NCBI GenBank assembly: GCA_964364265.1
Contig: CAYILA010000004.1
Span: 9,126-73,125 of the forward strand
Direction: 5' to 3'
From: an uncultured Candidatus Saccharibacteria bacterium
GTDB lineage: Bacteria; Patescibacteriota; UBA1384; XYA2-FULL-43-10; 1-14-0-10-43-13
DNA: 64,000 nt
Below, piece by piece: positions 46,337 to 60,076 of the stretch. Each line of letters begins with the position of its first letter. The first letter of the stretch is position 1. The notes beneath the pieces are model-generated. The model had not been told where the DNA came from. It did not search any database and was given only the letters and a program-made list of their open reading frames with translations. Both the position numbers and the translations under genes were made by a program.

Positions 46337-46420
46337 CCATCTTGTCATTCCGGCCTAGAAGCTTGAGAGCCGGAATCTTTCTCAAGATTCCCGATCAGGT
46401 CGGGAATGACATCACTTGAT
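46337..46420. repeat. PE-1 palindromic element
   Basis: cttgtcattccggcctag ... ggtcgggaatgacatc. Confidence 0.65.
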
Positions 46421-49050: not shown

Positions 49051-49143
49051 TGGCGGAGAGAATGGGATTCGAACCCATGTGGCGGCTTTTAGACCACCGA
49101 CGGTTTAGCAAACCGTTCCCTTAAGCCTCTCGGGCATCTCTCC
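49051..49143 (-). tRNA. tRNA-Ser (anticodon GCT), long variable arm, CCA encoded
   Basis: Acceptor ggagaga/tctctcc, anticodon stem acggt/accgt with loop ttGCTaa, variable arm cggtggtctaaaagccgccac, T-arm atggg-ttcgaat-cccat. Confidence 0.85.
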
Positions 49144-49147
49144 ATAA

Positions 49148-49399
49148 TTATTTCATTAATCTTTTGAAAGCTTCACCGCCTTTATAAGATTTGATTTGTT
49201 TTTCCCGTCTCATCGCTTCTGACCTTGTTTCAAAGATCTCCGTGTATTTGACTATCCAAGGAATGCCGTTCTTAGTAGACCGAGTCATGCCATCGTTGTG
49301 TCTCTCTAATCTGACTGTCATATCCTCGCACGATCCGATATAAAATCTTCCGTGTTTTTTACTTTGAATCACATAAGCATAAAACGACATATAATCCAC
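49148..49399 (-). CDS. GIY-YIG nuclease family small protein
   Basis: YAYVIQSKKHGRFYIGSCEDMTVRLERHN...REKQIK matches the GIY-YIG core; likely start is the ATG at 49390, since the GTG at 49399 lies inside the tRNA-fragment repeat. Confidence 0.8.
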   Translation of the reverse strand: MDYMSFYAYVIQSKKHGRFYIGSCEDMTVRLERHNDGMTRSTKNGIPWIVKYTEIFETRSEAMRREKQIKSYKGGEAFKRLMK

Positions 49400-49442
49400 C
49401 GACGGTTTAGTCCCGCCAACGGCGGGATTCCCTTATCCGCAT
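49391..49442. repeat. Diverged duplicate of the 5' half of tRNA-Ser flanking the GIY-YIG gene
   Basis: ggagagatgc ... aagggaa ... ctaaaccgtcggtgg is shared with the 5' part of tRNA-Ser at 49099-49143. Confidence 0.5.
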
Positions 49443-49594
49443 CTCTCCATTTGTAACACTAAACAAGAGAACTTTGCTATGTTCCCGGTTGCTTGGCTCT
49501 TGTTTTCAGTAACCAAATTACCACAAGTTGACATAATTGTATACTGCAGATGCGTAGTAGTGAGTGCGTACCAAAATATTTCACTTATCTAATT

Positions 49595-49625
49595 CTTGAC
49601 GGCAGTACTACGGAATAGTATATAA
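49595..49625 (+). promoter_or_regulatory. Strong sigma-70-like promoter (TTGACG, 17-nt spacer, TATATAAT) giving a leaderless or near-leaderless transcript for ORF 49634
   Basis: Consensus boxes read directly; ATG 9 nt after the -10 with no RBS. Confidence 0.55.
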
Positions 49626-49633
49626 TCAAACCC

Positions 49634-50158
49634 ATGAAGAAATTACTCCTAATTGCATTATTGAGTTCTGGTTTTGTACCGCTCTCTGCAGGTCAAGCTT
49701 ACGCCCAATGTCCTGTCTGCACCGCCGCCGCGCTGGGCGGCGTCGGCCTGGCCAGGTGGCTGAAAATTGATGATCTGGTGACCGGACTCTGGGTCGGCGG
49801 GGCTCTTGCCTCAACCACAGCCTGGACAATCAACTGGCTAAACAAGAAGAATATCAAATTTGTAGGCAGGAAGATTCTTATAGCTCTCATCACTTACGGA
49901 TTCGTCCTTGTTCCTTTCCACTACAAGGGGATTATCACTCACCCGCGCAATAAATACATCGGCGATTTTTACCTCGGAATCGATAAACTGGTCCTTGGGA
50001 TAATTATCGGCACTATTTTTCTGGCCGTAGCTGTCATGGCTTACGAAACGGTCAAGAGAAAGAACGCCGGCCACGCCCATTTCCCATTCGAAAAAGTTGC
50101 TTTCCCGATCGGCGCTTTGGCAATAATGAGCGTCATATTTTATTTCATAACCAAATAG
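49634..50158 (+). CDS. Hypothetical secreted/membrane protein (signal peptide plus about 4 TM)
   Basis: N-terminal signal-like MKKLLLIALLSSGFVPLSAGQAYA; no family recognised. Confidence 0.45.
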   Translation: MKKLLLIALLSSGFVPLSAGQAYAQCPVCTAAALGGVGLARWLKIDDLVTGLWVGGALASTTAWTINWLNKKNIKFVGRKILIALITYGFVLVPFHYKGIITHPRNKYIGDFYLGIDKLVLGIIIGTIFLAVAVMAYETVKRKNAGHAHFPFEKVAFPIGALAIMSVIFYFITK

Positions 50159-50739: not shown

Positions 50740-51717
50740 CTAATATGGAGCTGGGATCAAGTTGGCGATTATTTTGATGATCGTGTCCTTATCTTTTGGG
50801 TTGCTGATAGCCACCAGTAATGCCAAAGCGACCAAAGTATCTTTGTCGATGCGCAGGAAACCATTTTGATCTAAATAATAGACGAATAGAAGCGAGGCAA
50901 TCCGTTTGTTGCCGTCAAAGAACGGGTGGTCTTTGACCACAAAGTAGAGCAGATGAGATGCTTTCTCGGCTGCAGTCGGATAAAGATCCACCCCATCAAA
51001 ACTTTGATATAAGTTGCCGATAATGCCAGGCAAGCGGTCACCATTATCGCGGCCAAAAAGATCGCCGGCCTCTTTTTTTGATGTGAGGTCATTTTTCAGT
51101 TCCGCTATGATTTTCTGGCAATCTTCATATTCAAGGTGATATTTGCCTTTCGTTCCCTTCGGAAGTTTAAGATTCCCTTCGTCATATTTGTACAACAAAG
51201 AAAACGAATCGGTGTAGTTGTCGATAATTTGAATCAGATCACCCTTTTTGCCTTCCAGCAAATCCGAATCGGCTGAATTCCGGATGAATTTGATAGCGTT
51301 TTGCAGTTCCAGGAATGCTTGCCTTTGCTCAAGCAGACGCTTCTCGTTGACGGCATAGCCCTTCACCAGATAATCCCGCAGTATTTTATTCGCCCAGATA
51401 CGGAATTGCGTCCCTTGTTTTGATTTGACGCGAAAACCGACCGAAATGATGACATCGAGATTGTAATACGCCACCTCGTATGTTTTCCCGTCCGCAGCAG
51501 TTGTTGCAAATTTTGCAACAACTGAATTCTTGGATAGTTCTTTCTCGCGAAAGATATTGCTGATGTGCCGTGAAATTACCGACTTATCACGACAGAAAAG
51601 TTCGGCCATCTGGTCTAAACTTAGCCAAACCGTTTCACCGAGTAATCTAACTTCAATCTTCGCTTTGCCTAAAGCATAGATTTTAACTTCACCCTTTTTG
51701 AGTTCTTCCTTTTTCAT
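50740..51717 (-). CDS. Fic/Doc family protein with an N-terminal RhuM-like domain
   Basis: RhuM-like N-terminus (TVWLSLDQMAELFCRDKSVISRHISNIF ... YNLDVIISVGFRVKS ... GTQFRIWA) and Fic motif HPFFDGNKRIASLLF. Confidence 0.85.
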   Translation of the reverse strand: MKKEELKKGEVKIYALGKAKIEVRLLGETVWLSLDQMAELFCRDKSVISRHISNIFREKELSKNSVVAKFATTAADGKTYEVAYYNLDVIISVGFRVKSKQGTQFRIWANKILRDYLVKGYAVNEKRLLEQRQAFLELQNAIKFIRNSADSDLLEGKKGDLIQIIDNYTDSFSLLYKYDEGNLKLPKGTKGKYHLEYEDCQKIIAELKNDLTSKKEAGDLFGRDNGDRLPGIIGNLYQSFDGVDLYPTAAEKASHLLYFVVKDHPFFDGNKRIASLLFVYYLDQNGFLRIDKDTLVALALLVAISNPKDKDTIIKIIANLIPAPY

Positions 51718-52047: not shown

Positions 52048-52270
52048 CGAGACCTCCTCTCAAGGGCGCGTCCAGTCGAAATGATAGTACATTATGGCTC
52101 TCAAATTAGTCAACAAAAAAGCTGGGTGACCGCAAGGTTAAAAGGCTCTTTTCCTATTGATAGTTCTCGACCCCGCCTTGGCGGGGCTCGAACAATAATG
52201 AAGCTGGATTCCCGCTGGAGTTTATCCCGTACTCCGATACGGGGCGGGAATGACTCGACAAAATATCGCC

Positions 52271-53908: not shown

Positions 53909-53965
53909 CTCCTAACTCCTACTAAATTACGAATTTATTCAAAATTACGAAATTACGAATTATTT
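53909..53965. promoter_or_regulatory. PE-3 leader element upstream of trxA
   Basis: cctaactcctactaaattacgaatttattcaaaattacgaaattacgaat. Confidence 0.45.
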
Positions 53966-54247
53966 ATTGTTCGAGCCCCGCCAAGGCGGGGTCGAGAACT
54001 ATCTCTAATATGATCTCGACATTACATGCCTACCGATAGGCAGACCTGCCTGCGGCAGGCAGGTTCGAAGAATAAGTAATAGATATTTTAACAATAGATT
54101 GGAAACAATACAATACAAAAAGTTATCAACAACAAAACTTAAACCAACATGTAAAATAAATTTATATCCTCTAAAATTGGCTTCTGCTCTAATCAATTAA
54201 AAAACTATCTTTTGTGTTTGCAAAAACAAGTTGTCGCGGTAATAACT

Positions 54248-57430: not shown

Positions 57431-60076
57431 TTATTTCGGCCACTTTGCGATCATAATCGATTCCGATAGTTTCGGATAAATCTGGCGCAAATCCTGCCAG
57501 ACAGCTTCGGTTACAAACGGCATGAATGGGTGAAGCATAATTAGAGTTTCTGAAAGAACTTTCATTAAGATTTTCTTCGTATTTGTGATCACCTCAATAG
57601 ATTCATTGTCATTCGGTTTTCGGTTTTCGGTTACGAGACCCGTTTCGGTTACGTCGGACGTTTTACGTGACCGCTCGACGATACGGACTTCGCCTGCCTC
57701 GCCGGTAGGCGGGTTACCGTTACCGCATGACGGTTGTAGCTGTGCCTTCGATGCTTCGATGTAAACATCGGCAAAGCTGTGCCAGAAGTACTCGTACAGC
57801 TTCTCACCCGCAAGCGAAAATTTATATTCATCGAGTAAGCGTGTTACTTCATTTTTGATCTCTTCATGCTCTTTCAAGATTGCTTTGTCGGCATCTGTCA
57901 ACCCGGGGACAGTCCCCGAGGGGGACAGTCCCCTTGCAATCCTTGATTCTCCAATGTCACCGCTCTGTAAGTCACCGTCTGAAACTCGCAGGATCACATA
58001 GCGCGAGGCGTTCCATATTTTATTCGAGAAATTTCGATATCCCTTGATTTTCGCCTCGCCAATGGGAATATCCTGGCCGGGCGTTGAGCCCACCACAAGT
58101 GCCATACGCATGGCGTCCGTACCGTATTTGGGTATTAAATCAAGAGGATCAAGGACATTGCCCAAAGATTTGCTCATCTTGCGGTTCTGCTCATCGCGCA
58201 CTAAACCATGGAGATAAACAGTCTCAAAGGGCGCTTTACCTGTAAATTCCAGTCCAAACATTATCATTCTAGCTACCCAGAAGAAGAGGATGTCGTAGCC
58301 GGTCTCCATCACACTCGTCGGATAGAAATATTGATAATCGCAATTAGTTATTCCCGACGCATAGGAGAATGGATGACTATTGCAATTTTCTTCGCTGTCA
58401 TCCTCGGGCTTGACCCGGGGATCTTTCGAAAGATTCCCGATCTGGTCGGGAATGACATCGCTGGACTGAGGCCAGCCAAGAGTTGAGAACGGCCAAAGAG
58501 CAGAGGAGAACCAGGTATCAAGCACATCCTCGTCCTGAACCCAGCCATCGCCTTCCGGCGGTTCAACGCCGACATAGATCTCGCTGTCGCTCGACAAATC
58601 CGAATCTCTAATATCTAAACCTACCTGTCCGGTAGGCAGGTCCGAAACAATTTTTGAATTTTCAAAATTCGAATTTCTAATTTCTTTAGGATTTAGGATT
58701 TCGGATTTCGGATTTCCTGCCTGTCTGTACCAAACCGGTATCTGATGTCCCCACCAGAGCTGACGCGAAACACACCAGTCGCGGATATTATCCATCCACT
58801 GGTAATACACTTTATCGAACCTGTTTGGAATTATTTTAATCTCACCGCTCTCAACCGCTTCTTTCGCCTTGTCGGCCAACGGCCGCATCTTTACAAACCA
58901 CTGTTTGGATGGAATCGGCTCAATCGATCCCCCACACCTATAACACTTGGATAAGTTATTCGTAATCTCCTGCTCCTTTTCAAGCAGTCCCTGGCTCTTC
59001 AAGTATTCAACCAATTTCTCGCGTGCCTCCGACACTTTTATACCGGTATATTTCCCGGCTTCATCCGTCATCTTGCCGTATTCATCAATAACTTTGATGA
59101 CAGGCAAACCGTTATCCTCGGCCATTTTCCAATCGGCGAATGAGTGCGCCGGCGTCAAACCGACCGCGCCTGTTCCGAATTCCTTATCTATCGATCGATT
59201 GGCGATAATTTTAATAGTCCTTTTGACTCCATCAATATCAACTTCATATGATTTACCCACAAATTCCTGATATCGCCGGTCATCCGGGTTTACGGCCACG
59301 CCGGTGTCGCCCAATTTTGTTTCGGGACGGGTGGTGGCGATGGTTACGGGAAAATTTTTATCGTATTTGAAGTAATATAATTTAGCGTTTTGTTCCTCGT
59401 ATTCCACCTCATCATCGGAAATTGCCGTCTGGCAACGCGAACACCAATTCACTACCCGCAACCCTCGATAGATGAGGCCTTTTTCGTATAGCTGGACGAA
59501 AGCTTCGCGCACGGCGCGGTTTAAGCCCTCATCCAATGTAAAGCGCTCTCTTGACCAATCGCAAGACGCTCCGAGGCGCTTTATCTGCTCGGTGATGATA
59601 CCTCCGTACCGCTCCTTCCACTCCCAAACTTTTTCGACAAATTTCTCCCGCCCAAGATCGTGCCTATTGATCCCCTGTTTCCGTAATTCTTTATCAACCA
59701 CTGTTTGAGTGGCAATACCGGCATGATCCGTGCCTGGCAGCCACAGAGTCGGCTCGCCTTTCAAACGATGATATCGAGTCAAAATATCTTCCAAGGTGAC
59801 AAACATGGCGTGACCCATATGCAATTTACCTGTAACATTCGGCGGCGGCATTGAAATCACAAAGGGCTTGCCGTCTTTGTCTCGATCATAGCTGAAGGAA
59901 CAACCACCAACCTTGTCATCCTCGGGCTTGACCCGGGGATCTTTTGCAACAAGATTCCCGCTTTCGCGGGAATGACAATAAGAAGTCTCCGGTTTAAAAT
60001 AACCTTTTTCTTCCCATTGTTTATAGAGTTCGGTTTCAAAATTTTGCGGTTCATATGCCTTTGGTATGTTTTTCAT
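57431..60076 (-). CDS. valS: Valyl-tRNA synthetase with three in-frame repeat-element insertions
   Basis: HIGH-class motif PPPNVTGKLHMGHA and KMSKS; PE-1 at 59914-59977 and 58405-58470; PE-2 with a nested GC palindrome at 58598-58716. Confidence 0.95.
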   Translation of the reverse strand: MKNIPKAYEPQNFETELYKQWEEKGYFKPETSYCHSRESGNLVAKDPRVKPEDDKVGGCSFSYDRDKDGKPFVISMPPPNVTGKLHMGHAMFVTLEDILTRYHRLKGEPTLWLPGTDHAGIATQTVVDKELRKQGINRHDLGREKFVEKVWEWKERYGGIITEQIKRLGASCDWSRERFTLDEGLNRAVREAFVQLYEKGLIYRGLRVVNWCSRCQTAISDDEVEYEEQNAKLYYFKYDKNFPVTIATTRPETKLGDTGVAVNPDDRRYQEFVGKSYEVDIDGVKRTIKIIANRSIDKEFGTGAVGLTPAHSFADWKMAEDNGLPVIKVIDEYGKMTDEAGKYTGIKVSEAREKLVEYLKSQGLLEKEQEITNNLSKCYRCGGSIEPIPSKQWFVKMRPLADKAKEAVESGEIKIIPNRFDKVYYQWMDNIRDWCVSRQLWWGHQIPVWYRQAGNPKSEILNPKEIRNSNFENSKIVSDLPTGQVGLDIRDSDLSSDSEIYVGVEPPEGDGWVQDEDVLDTWFSSALWPFSTLGWPQSSDVIPDQIGNLSKDPRVKPEDDSEENCNSHPFSYASGITNCDYQYFYPTSVMETGYDILFFWVARMIMFGLEFTGKAPFETVYLHGLVRDEQNRKMSKSLGNVLDPLDLIPKYGTDAMRMALVVGSTPGQDIPIGEAKIKGYRNFSNKIWNASRYVILRVSDGDLQSGDIGESRIARGLSPSGTVPGLTDADKAILKEHEEIKNEVTRLLDEYKFSLAGEKLYEYFWHSFADVYIEASKAQLQPSCGNGNPPTGEAGEVRIVERSRKTSDVTETGLVTENRKPNDNESIEVITNTKKILMKVLSETLIMLHPFMPFVTEAVWQDLRQIYPKLSESIMIAKWPK
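58598..58716. repeat. PE-2 element inside valS, in frame, with a nested GC palindrome
   Basis: Encodes NPKSEILNPKEIRNSNFENSKIVSDL then PTGQVG. Confidence 0.7.

Follow-up and report, generated by a model that had tools for sequence, protein, structure and literature searches.

How does a gene for a nuclease of 80 amino acids (aa) come to stand between two copies of the same transfer RNA gene, one of them intact and the other broken by a GC-rich hairpin? The question is raised by a locus in a 64,000-nucleotide (nt) stretch of DNA from an uncultured Candidatus Saccharibacteria bacterium (assembly GCA_964364265.1, contig CAYILA010000004.1, positions 9,126 to 73,125 of the forward strand). The whole of this stretch is referred to here as the window, and coordinates are those of the window unless another locus is named. 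The locus holds a cassette of about 300 bp, made up of an 80-aa GIY-YIG gene and a GC-rich DNA hairpin, within a local duplication of tRNA-Ser(GCT). An earlier examination of the letters of the window without database searches (the sequence-only reading) had drawn attention to the gene and to the second tRNA copy, and had attributed the arrangement to a homing-type element; the conserved GC hairpin, which proves to be the most informative feature, was absent from it. Here we describe the anatomy of the locus, its empty counterpart in a relative, and its recurrence at tRNA genes in many other genomes, and we lean, if modestly, towards reading it as a minimal selfish nuclease and hairpin cassette that lives in duplicated tRNA genes.

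Results

All of the features of the locus lie on the minus strand, on which the order is a conserved flank, a dead tRNA copy that spans positions 1-50 and bears the hairpin, the open reading frame (ORF) and the intact tRNA. The intact tRNA-Ser(GCT), of 93 nt, occupies 49051-49143; ARAGORN and the Rfam tRNA model (55.1 bits, E=8.8e-11) agree on its 5' end at 49143, as the sequence-only reading had given it, and this gene, immediately 3' of the ORF, is the functional copy. By direct reading, a 4-nt spacer, TTAT (49144-49147), is all that separates tRNA position 1 from the ORF stop (TAA, 49150-49148). The ORF itself (49148-49390) starts with ATG at 49390 and encodes a single-domain GIY-YIG nuclease of 80 aa with a match to Pfam PF01541. 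It had been correctly recognised as a gene of 80 aa adjoining the tRNA, in an interval drawn as far as 49399; the in-frame GTG there, which would add 3 residues, is a less likely start than the ATG, which alignment with homologues favours (80 aa).

Upstream of the ATG, a 5-nt spacer read directly as ATTAT (49391-49395) is preceded by the remnant of a second tRNA. The 5' segment of this pseudo-tRNA, GGAGAGATGC-GGAT-AAGGGAA (49428-49448), aligns with tRNA positions 1-27, minus a 7-nt deletion in the D-loop. It is followed by a perfect GC hairpin, TCCCGCC-GTT-GGCGGGA (17 nt, 7-bp stem, 3-nt loop; 49427-49411), delimited by alignment and direct reading, which stands in for tRNA positions 28-34, CGGTTTG, the stretch that in tRNA-Ser runs from the 5' strand of the anticodon stem through the wobble base. 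The tRNA sequence then resumes with CTAAACCGTCGGTGG (49396-49410), identical in 15/15 bases to 49094-49108 (tRNA positions 36-50) and covering the last two anticodon bases, the 3' anticodon stem and the 5' strand of the variable arm. Position 50, in the loop of that arm, is the last one copied, and the hairpin is placed 5 nt plus 15 nt upstream of the ATG. The tRNA and its copy have three exact blocks in common, namely GGAGAGATGC at 49448-49439 (tRNA 1-10), AAGGGAA at 49434-49428, and CTAAACCGTCGGTGG at 49410-49396. Their local alignment score was reached by 0/200 shuffles, and for the CTAAACCGTCGGTGG 15-mer, at <=2 mismatches, chance predicts 0.03 occurrences in a window, these two places being the only ones that have it. 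The copy of the tRNA 5' half that had been noticed is, in consequence of this alignment, real, but it spans 49396-49448 rather than 49391-49442; the earlier interval, about 6 nt off, loses the first 6 bases of the copy and takes in the ATTAT spacer. Nor is the copy merely diverged, as had been supposed, in that its divergence is structured and consists of the D-loop deletion together with the hairpin in place of 7 nt.

The left flank (49449-49640), which is shared at 81% identity with a relative that lacks the cassette (see below), presumably holds the tRNA promoter, now driving the ORF too; a simple sigma-70 scan of this flank gave no minus-strand match. The GGTGG just before the ATTAT spacer could serve as a Shine-Dalgarno-like element. 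A pattern scan, and no other method, also indicates that 49396-49422 on the minus strand could adopt an alternative 10-pair hairpin, CCGTTGGCGG...CCGTCGGTGG (G.T allowed), which rivals the GC hairpin. If formed in RNA, this alternative would mask GGTGG near the ATG and might possibly act as a translational switch.

The window derives from a Patescibacteria (CPR) population of Hainich groundwater. Relatives of the locus were sought with the neighbouring 167-aa gene, and the informative one, L085, comes from a different sample. Its 167-aa gene is 93% identical to that of the window in protein and 86% in DNA, and its left flank remains 81% identical up to the very start of the pseudo-tRNA. Exactly at the position of the window's pseudo-copy, L085 has one tRNA-Ser(GCT), which is intact, and the 167-aa gene comes straight after it; the ORF, the hairpin and a second tRNA copy are all absent from this site. 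Given that the intact tRNA of L085 begins at the same point of the flank, the pseudo-copy in the window is at the ancestral tRNA position; and given that the tRNA of L085 is single and uninterrupted, the ORF and the second tRNA 5' part constitute extra DNA. An insertion with partial tRNA duplication tied to the GIY-YIG gene, one of the possibilities first raised for the locus, is supported by this empty site and by the repetition of the layout in dozens of unrelated loci; classical homing is not. Two more distant relatives, L086 and L087, have no tRNA-Ser at this position and are uninformative. Gene order near the cassette differs among L085, L086 and L087, and the neighbourhood is evidently variable.

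One idea was that the cassette brings in a tRNA of its own and inactivates the resident gene: the tRNA-Ser of the window had seemed to differ too much from that of L085, and the intact tRNA of two further loci (L002 and L007) had looked like an imported type. Controls of divergence and of occurrence refute this idea. Between the window and L085 the identities are 76% for tRNA-Arg, 84% for tRNA-Ser, 86% for the neighbouring gene and 81% for the flank, and the divergence of tRNA-Ser is ordinary, that of tRNA-Arg being no smaller (76% vs 84% identity). Furthermore, among 102 evaluable metagenome loci with the tRNA-Ser type GTCGCATAGYGGYCTAGTGC, a type that adjoins many of the ORFs, 97 are without the ORF and 5 have it adjacent. 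By the same count the ORF is carried only sporadically, beside about 5% of comparable tRNA genes.

The encoded protein matches Pfam PF01541 with 48.5 bits (cut-off 22.6; E=1.1e-12) over residues 6-71 and ends 9 residues past the Pfam domain; no second domain was found in the family protein by Pfam, PADLOC, PHROGs or NCBIfam. Invariant across 26 homologues, the window protein included, are Y6, Y17, G19, R27, H31 and E51, among which we take the catalytic residues to be those indicated by I-TevI numbering (the Tyr of GIY, the Tyr of YIG, Arg, His and Glu). By the domain match and these conserved active-site residues the protein is placed in the GIY-YIG nuclease superfamily, and nuclease activity is predicted for it. 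Homologues are 78-105 aa long and 50-64% identical regardless of phylum, and the family has many members (at E<=1e-10, 6231 representatives of clusters at 50% identity), while the 64-kb window has no GIY-YIG ORF besides 49148-49390. Against solved structures, the family profile ranks UPF0213 proteins first (E=6e-13 and 5e-10), then eukaryotic SLX1 (1e-6), and I-TevI as the weakest relevant PDB match (1e-3). By this ranking the family would belong to the minimal 'Slx1-like' branch of Dunin-Horkawicz et al. 2006 (PMC1564403).

A further point of comparison is the Ssn family (CDD cd10448) described by Chenal 2025 (Nat Commun 16:2388, PMC11893778), which comprises single-domain GIY-YIG proteins of about 94 aa. 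SsnA binds a hairpin repeat, CGTCATTCCCGCG-MAV-GCGGGAATCYRG (the Neisseria NTS), acts on single-stranded DNA only and cuts upstream of the repeat, and Ssn genes are typically flanked by NTS/SRM hairpin repeats (PMC11893778). The word 'tRNA' does not occur in the text of that paper. Our comparison set consisted of six NTS-flanked ORFs of 96-104 aa, taken from NTS-containing contigs of a viral collection, which are Ssn-like proteins and not characterised SsnA; the family profile matches them with a probability of 98.5% (E=3e-15, 69 columns, 26% identity). The profile is closest, then, to UPF0213/Slx1-like and Ssn-like proteins and not to enzymes of the I-TevI type, and the protein is a catalytic domain only, with no DNA-binding domain and with its supposed target intact beside the gene, all of which argues against the label of homing-type element that the locus had been given.

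Two regularities of the family's ORFs may be mentioned in connection with the protein. Many ORFs across the family run into the tRNA and stop at U8-A9-G10, and tails such as ...GEVA result from this use of the three tRNA bases as a TAG stop. Many family proteins in databases are 100-130 aa long, their domain beginning at residue 20-50, and they probably owe this length to start codons wrongly called across the region of the pseudo-tRNA and hairpin.

The layout of the window recurs widely. A scan of one genome per species, with a motif drawn from the 26 aligned homologues, confirmed 237 loci; the counts below are over 81 loci, being the best 80 of the 237, which were the ones studied, and the window. 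An intact tRNA on the same strand lies <=120 nt from the ORF in 68/81 loci, downstream of it in 50 and upstream in 18, and several of the 13 loci without a tRNA end at a contig edge. The isotypes are most often Ser (GGA/GCT/TGA; 25 loci), Tyr(GTA) (21) and Pro (15), with Thr, Glu, Lys and Gly as further kinds, and the hosts include many lineages of the Candidate Phyla Radiation (CPR), Bacteroidota, Ignavibacteria, Chlorobiota, Omnitrophota, Zixibacteria, Planctomycetes and others. In 54 of the 68 tRNA-linked loci, the opening ten bases of the tRNA appear again 0-37 nt past the conserved C-terminal motif of the protein. Most of the loci have on the other side of the ORF a further copy of their tRNA, partial or whole, that bears the hairpin. 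With the intact tRNA downstream, this copy in the flank upstream of the ORF comprises positions 1 to about 35, and is perfect in L015, L027, L034, L038, L044, L050, L058 and L060; with the intact tRNA upstream, the copy downstream of the ORF runs from position 36 to the end (perfectly in L020) or takes in nearly the whole tRNA. The break in the tRNA copy commonly falls at position 34-36.

Two rules hold throughout the family. The stop codon of the ORF touches or lies within the 5' end of a tRNA or pseudo-tRNA, and a second copy of that tRNA is on the other side; and exactly one tRNA copy is intact, the hairpin being in the other. There is no conserved ORF in these loci other than the GIY-YIG gene. 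The nearest protein neighbour is associated with the same tRNA isotype in 42/58 cases, vs 27% expected at random, and because so many nearest relatives share an isotype we conclude that lineages keep to one kind of tRNA. Full-text literature searches returned no prior description of a tRNA-linked small GIY-YIG gene, and what we see is apparently a widespread, undescribed, tRNA-embedded variant of the theme of a hairpin joined to a minimal GIY-YIG protein.

Individual loci offer some further detail on the two tRNA copies. In L062, a call of 'tRNA-Phe(AAA)' is probably a pseudo-tRNA, since it includes the hairpin and reproduces the 3' part of the tRNA-Tyr next to it. In two Doudnabacteria loci, L002 (1395-1441) and L007, the pseudo-tRNA 5' half and the start of the hairpin are identical at 47/47 positions, with the ORFs about 68% and the intact tRNAs about 88% identical (estimates from the alignment), and the pseudo half and the intact copy belong to different sequence types of tRNA-Ser.

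The hairpin accompanies the gene with great constancy. Hairpins with a CCGC...GCGG core and a stem of >=6 bp are found at 67/81 loci, and their density around the gene is 0.42/kb, vs 0.022/kb in control loci (746 kb, similar organisms), a 19-fold excess. In CPR loci there is a module of two hairpins, CCACCGCC-loop-GGCGGGG and then TCCCGCC-loop-GGCGGGA, cleanly inserted at anticodon position 34/35 or 35/36 or in the D-loop, with the tRNA sequence continuing straight after it, and the hairpin is just upstream of the ATG. As only the second hairpin of this module remains in the window, along with further deletions, the window copy is old and eroded. Bacteroidota and some others have one hairpin, which replaces a whole tRNA arm exactly at the arm base and is flanked by positions 8-9 and 24-28 where the D arm is replaced, by 26 and 44 for the anticodon arm, and by 49 and 65 for the T arm; in L066 the anticodon arm has given way to the hairpin, 17 nt for 17 nt.

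The stem of the family hairpin measures 7 bp, the next pair outwards being at chance level. Its outer two pairs vary by compensating changes (TCCCGCC/GGCGGGA, TGCCGCC/GGCGGCA, TTCCGCC/GGCGGAA, CCCCGCC/GGCGGGG), and Watson-Crick pairs make up 77/108 and 87/108 at the two positions, vs 46 and 44 expected. G.T pairs are rare in this covarying stem, which fits a hairpin of DNA rather than of RNA. In Rfam searches at the window site and at nine loci with the full two-hairpin module, tRNAs only were found, and no known RNA motif for the hairpin. The possibility of an intrinsic terminator was considered as well and is ruled out: there is no T-run after the hairpin, and its flanks are not conserved.

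Beside the GIY-YIG gene the hairpin also marks the junctions of tandem repeats, and such arrays are frequent in the family. L018 has, at 1925-2920, 12 perfect 86-nt units composed of the hairpin, the tRNA-Tyr 3' part and a terminator. L043 has two arrays, one at 940-1390 of 7 x 66 nt (upstream flank, tRNA-Pro 1-10 and hairpin) and one at 1390-2300 of at least 3 units of 359 nt (hairpin-bearing pseudo-tRNA-Pro, terminator and ORF), and L019 has, at 1000-2500, an array of pseudo-tRNA-Pro and ORF with a 363-nt period. In L019, L025, L036 and L042 the general order is tRNA-Pro and then repeated units of ORF and pseudo-tRNA-Pro. Such copies of tRNA-Pro, in which the D arm is replaced, are still called as tRNAs by ARAGORN (77 nt, anticodon at 37), and score 37-48 bits with Rfam vs 59 for the true gene; they are found at L019 1369-1445, 1733-1809 and 2096-2172, and also in L025, L036 and L042. 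It is probable that tRNA-Pro genes are over-counted in annotations of such Bacteroidota.

Discussion

The best account that we can offer of these loci, and one to which we give a measured preference, is that of a minimal selfish nuclease and hairpin cassette living in duplicated tRNA genes. The ORF would have no promoter or terminator of its own and would be read from the tRNA promoter, and cleavage by RNase P at the intact tRNA would free the message and leave the tRNA supply unharmed. By analogy with SsnA, the nuclease would bind the hairpin in single-stranded DNA, as may be presented by replication, by busy transcription of the tRNA gene or by incoming DNA, and would nick alongside it. Breaks in the repeated tRNA segment would be mended by recombination between the tRNA copies, and such repair could give rise to partial duplications, to arrays of ORF and pseudo-tRNA or of hairpin and fragment, and to the precise losses that would be seen as empty sites. 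Excised circles or transformed fragments with ends of tRNA sequence might insert at the same tRNA elsewhere; exchange between such a circle or fragment, carrying the ORF and part of a tRNA, and a chromosomal tRNA gene could produce either of the two layouts, according to the point of exchange relative to the hairpin. Selection would remove those products whose sole tRNA copy bears the hairpin, and because selection would in this way keep one tRNA copy intact, the hairpin would be seen in the dead copy only.

The closest known parallel is the Ssn system. In both there is a single-domain GIY-YIG protein of 80-100 aa and a nearly equal stem (NTS TCCCGCG...GCGGGA vs family TCCCGCC...GGCGGGA), in both further copies of the hairpin lie dispersed at other places and may bracket genes, and in both the protein and hairpin variants co-vary between lineages. 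The two differ in that the six NTS-flanked Ssn-like genes are without a nearby tRNA, whereas the present family is embedded in a duplicated tRNA, with its hairpin built into the dead copy, and has shorter proteins. Cutting of single strands only, beside the hairpin, is what the analogy predicts for the family, and the covariation of the stem with few G.T pairs is an indirect hint in that direction. We have filed the gene as one that would, by this analogy, work like an Ssn-type hairpin-directed nuclease, and have done so without assigning it to the Ssn clade.

Other systems share some of these features. The UPF0213/Slx1-like proteins (PDB 1zg2, 1ywl; PMC1564403) likewise have a minimal GIY-YIG domain and no C-terminal Asn region, and eukaryotic Slx1 cuts branched and stem-loop DNA, but UPF0213 proteins have no reported hairpin repeats or linkage to tRNA. 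REP/BIME-RAYT systems and IS200/IS605 elements resemble the family in combining a small gene with short GC hairpins that multiply and cluster by the gene, and in the recognition of hairpins in single-stranded DNA. Their enzymes, however, are HUH/Y1 transposases, which have covalent intermediates and can rejoin DNA, as a GIY-YIG hydrolase cannot, and they have no tRNA specificity; the gene associated with the hairpin in our loci is that of the GIY-YIG protein, and no other conserved ORF is there to supply a Y1/HUH transposase. Integrative elements that target tRNA genes are similar in having breakpoints in tRNA loops, in leaving a partial copy and in keeping a complete tRNA; those with a tyrosine integrase reportedly use anticodon-loop and T-loop sublocations of tRNA genes (Williams 2002). 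They are 10-100 kb in size and carry an integrase, while the cassette is of 0.3 kb, has no integrase and has a hairpin in the dead copy, and in the cassette family either the 5' or the 3' tRNA part may be duplicated, unlike in integrative elements.

A number of observations weigh against the selfish cassette and should be set out together. Some concern the likeness to Ssn. The family hidden Markov model scores the Ssn-like ORFs (50.9 bits) no higher than UPF0213 BH0048 (51.9 bits), and the family proteins end with IKSYKGGEAFKKL, vs KKWxRAWKLxLIExxNPxWRDL in Ssn, so that the Ssn tail is missing. The 5' GTCAT flank that is essential for cutting by SsnA is missing from the window hairpin, and the published SRM regular expression, which includes a 5' flank HGTCWY, has 0 matches in the 80 family loci; the SRM pattern does not match at 49411-49427 either, and NTS-selected positive controls gave 263 matches. 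Others concern the genetics. The empty site could equally represent a precise loss rather than a never-filled state, and the window copy, being old (the first hairpin of the CPR module gone, the D-loop deleted), is of little evidence on fresh events. The 47/47 identity of L002 and L007 suggests constraint on a supposedly 'dead' copy, with constraint and gene conversion both possibilities. Last are the difficulties of mechanism, every step of which is drawn from analogy, in distinction to the cassette's architecture, its empty site, the rules of hairpin placement and the arrays, which are observed. A hydrolytic nuclease cannot join DNA, and for this reason host recombination must do the insertion; naive tRNA genes carry no hairpin, and the first entry into a new tRNA is left unexplained on this account if cutting needs one; and simple break repair would not lead one to expect the exact swap of arm for hairpin (in L066, 17 nt for 17 nt).

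Of the alternatives, classical homing was the one suggested at the outset: the protein would cut a double-stranded tRNA-Ser without the gene, and break repair would copy the gene in, as for SegB of phage T4. There is something to recommend it. The GIY-YIG fold and its catalytic residues are intact; searches for a defence or phage assignment with PADLOC, PHROGs and NCBIfam gave marginal matches only, and these to homing-endonuclease models; filled and empty alleles coexist, L085 being empty and 97/102 comparable tRNA-Ser genes being without the ORF; and protein lineages follow the tRNA isotype. SegB itself shows that a homing enzyme of the GIY-YIG type can reside among tRNA genes (PMC2330249), and resembles the family in being lodged at tRNA genes with polymorphism of presence and absence, and SegB is reported to drive segmental amplification of a tRNA locus (PMC13096335), which echoes the family arrays. 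The Seg enzymes are nevertheless different: they have 200+ aa and a DNA-binding domain, cut double-stranded DNA, and lodge between genes, with no gene duplication and no hairpin. With 80 aa, the present protein has neither the linker nor the DNA-binding domain that known GIY-YIG homing enzymes require, and its match to I-TevI (E=1e-3) is far behind that to UPF0213 (6e-13). Moreover, the supposed target stays intact 4 nt from the gene, which means that the carrier would not be immune to such an enzyme, and homing yields no target duplications, tandem arrays or conserved hairpin. We judge it unlikely that homing accounts for the locus.

An equally unlikely alternative, in our estimation, is that the gene is domesticated and serves the host, as an immobile repair, recombination or DNA-uptake nuclease expressed from tRNA operons, the pseudo-tRNA and hairpin being its leader or autoregulatory site. 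The ORF is intact and conserved, its placement suits expression from a strong promoter, the hairpin of CPR loci is just upstream of the ATG, and the identity of the pseudo-tRNA halves of L002 and L007 hints at constraint; domestication was also put forward by the Ssn authors, who suggest control of DNA uptake for Neisseria SsnA (PMC11893778). A host function does not sit well, however, with the patchiness of the gene (5/102 comparable tRNA genes), with its spread over seven isotypes and many phyla at 50-64% protein identity regardless of phylum, with perfect recent duplications and large perfect arrays, or with an empty site in L085, a congener. It also has to contend with the listing of GIY-YIG genes among those passed from Patescibacteria to other bacteria (PMC12455944).

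That the locus is an ancient tandem of tRNA-Ser genes, one of which decayed while an unrelated small ORF arose or landed between them, we hold to be very improbable. Identical tandem tRNA genes do occur in bacteria, and Bacteroidota ORFs are flanked by nearly whole second copies of tRNA-Pro, but comparison of the tRNA-Ser locus with its closest relative, which has one intact tRNA and no ORF, contradicts such a history; the second copies always have the family hairpin at defined structural positions, the same layout is found at seven isotypes in distant phyla, and the ORF family is conserved, with thousands of members. Hardest of all to credit is the leftover attachment site of an integrase-type, tRNA-targeting island, for although a partial tRNA repeat broken in a loop resembles an att site, and a Fic/RhuM-type gene is 1.3 kb away, the anatomy contradicts it, there being no integrase in or beside the cassette, repeats about 250 bp apart with the nuclease gene alone between them, a duplicated 5' half where integrases duplicate the 3' part, and across loci a GIY-YIG gene as the sole constant partner.

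Returning to the selfish nuclease and hairpin cassette, a broader proposition may be attached to it, which we advance as a tentative one that may well prove wrong. It is possible that these loci represent an unrecognised class of selfish elements of 0.3-0.4 kb, extending from CPR to Bacteroidota, in which the gene for a hairpin-directed, single-stranded DNA nuclease parasitises tRNA genes, duplicates the host tRNA, disables one copy through insertion of its recognition hairpin or substitution of that hairpin for a whole tRNA arm, is driven by the tRNA promoter and uses the highly conserved tRNA as portable homology. With such homology the element could be excised, be amplified in tandem and enter the corresponding tRNA gene in other genomes.

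Several consequences reach beyond the window. Thousands of genes stand annotated as 'GIY-YIG nuclease family protein' with no function, and the members examined here follow a strict and apparently undescribed rule of residence inside duplicated tRNA genes. The layout offers hairpin-directed single-strand nucleases a testable genomic role, that of selfish maintenance and local amplification at tRNA genes, and the exact swaps of arm for hairpin raise the question of how single-stranded tRNA-gene DNA might be recognised and rebuilt. A set of annotation artefacts is accounted for as well, namely pseudo-tRNAs with a hairpin for a D arm that are called as tRNAs, N-terminal overextensions, and stop codons supplied by tRNA bases 8-10. 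Matched pairs of enzyme and hairpin could, finally, be of use as tools for cutting single-stranded DNA.

Other Repeats and Neighbouring Genes

A gene 1.3 kb from the cassette encodes a 325-aa protein with a RhuM/Fic domain (50740-51717, minus strand), and two small ORFs between that gene and the cassette have no family match. Elsewhere in the window there is a perfect 40-nt inverted repeat (52159-52198 and 53964-54003), GATAGTTCTCGA-CCCCGCCTTGGCGGGG-CTCGAACAATAA, with a further copy of the GC hairpin central in each arm. The pair brackets 1765 nt that hold a Glu/Leu/Phe/Val-dehydrogenase gene and a thioredoxin gene, and the arrangement resembles the 'repeat-gene-repeat' pattern of Neisseria Ssn. 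In L085, a version without the hairpin, TAGTTCTCGACCGGCTCGAACGATAA, is found at another place, as if the hairpin had joined the tip of an existing small repeat.

Canonical SRM elements with the GTCAT flank are also present in the window, at 46344-46412, 58396-58459 and 59914-59977. They are composite palindromes of 64-69 nt with TGTCAT...ATGACA ends, each containing two hairpins that fit the SRM pattern; one of these, TGTCATTCCCGCGAAAGCGGGAATCTTG at 59950-59977, is almost the Neisseria consensus and has the TCCCGC/GCGGGA stem in common with the window hairpin. The element at 46344-46412 is intergenic. The other two are in frame within the 881-aa ORF of a valyl-tRNA synthetase (57431-60076, minus strand), to which they add peptides such as CHSRESGNLVAKDPRVKPEDDK, akin to Rickettsia palindromic elements.

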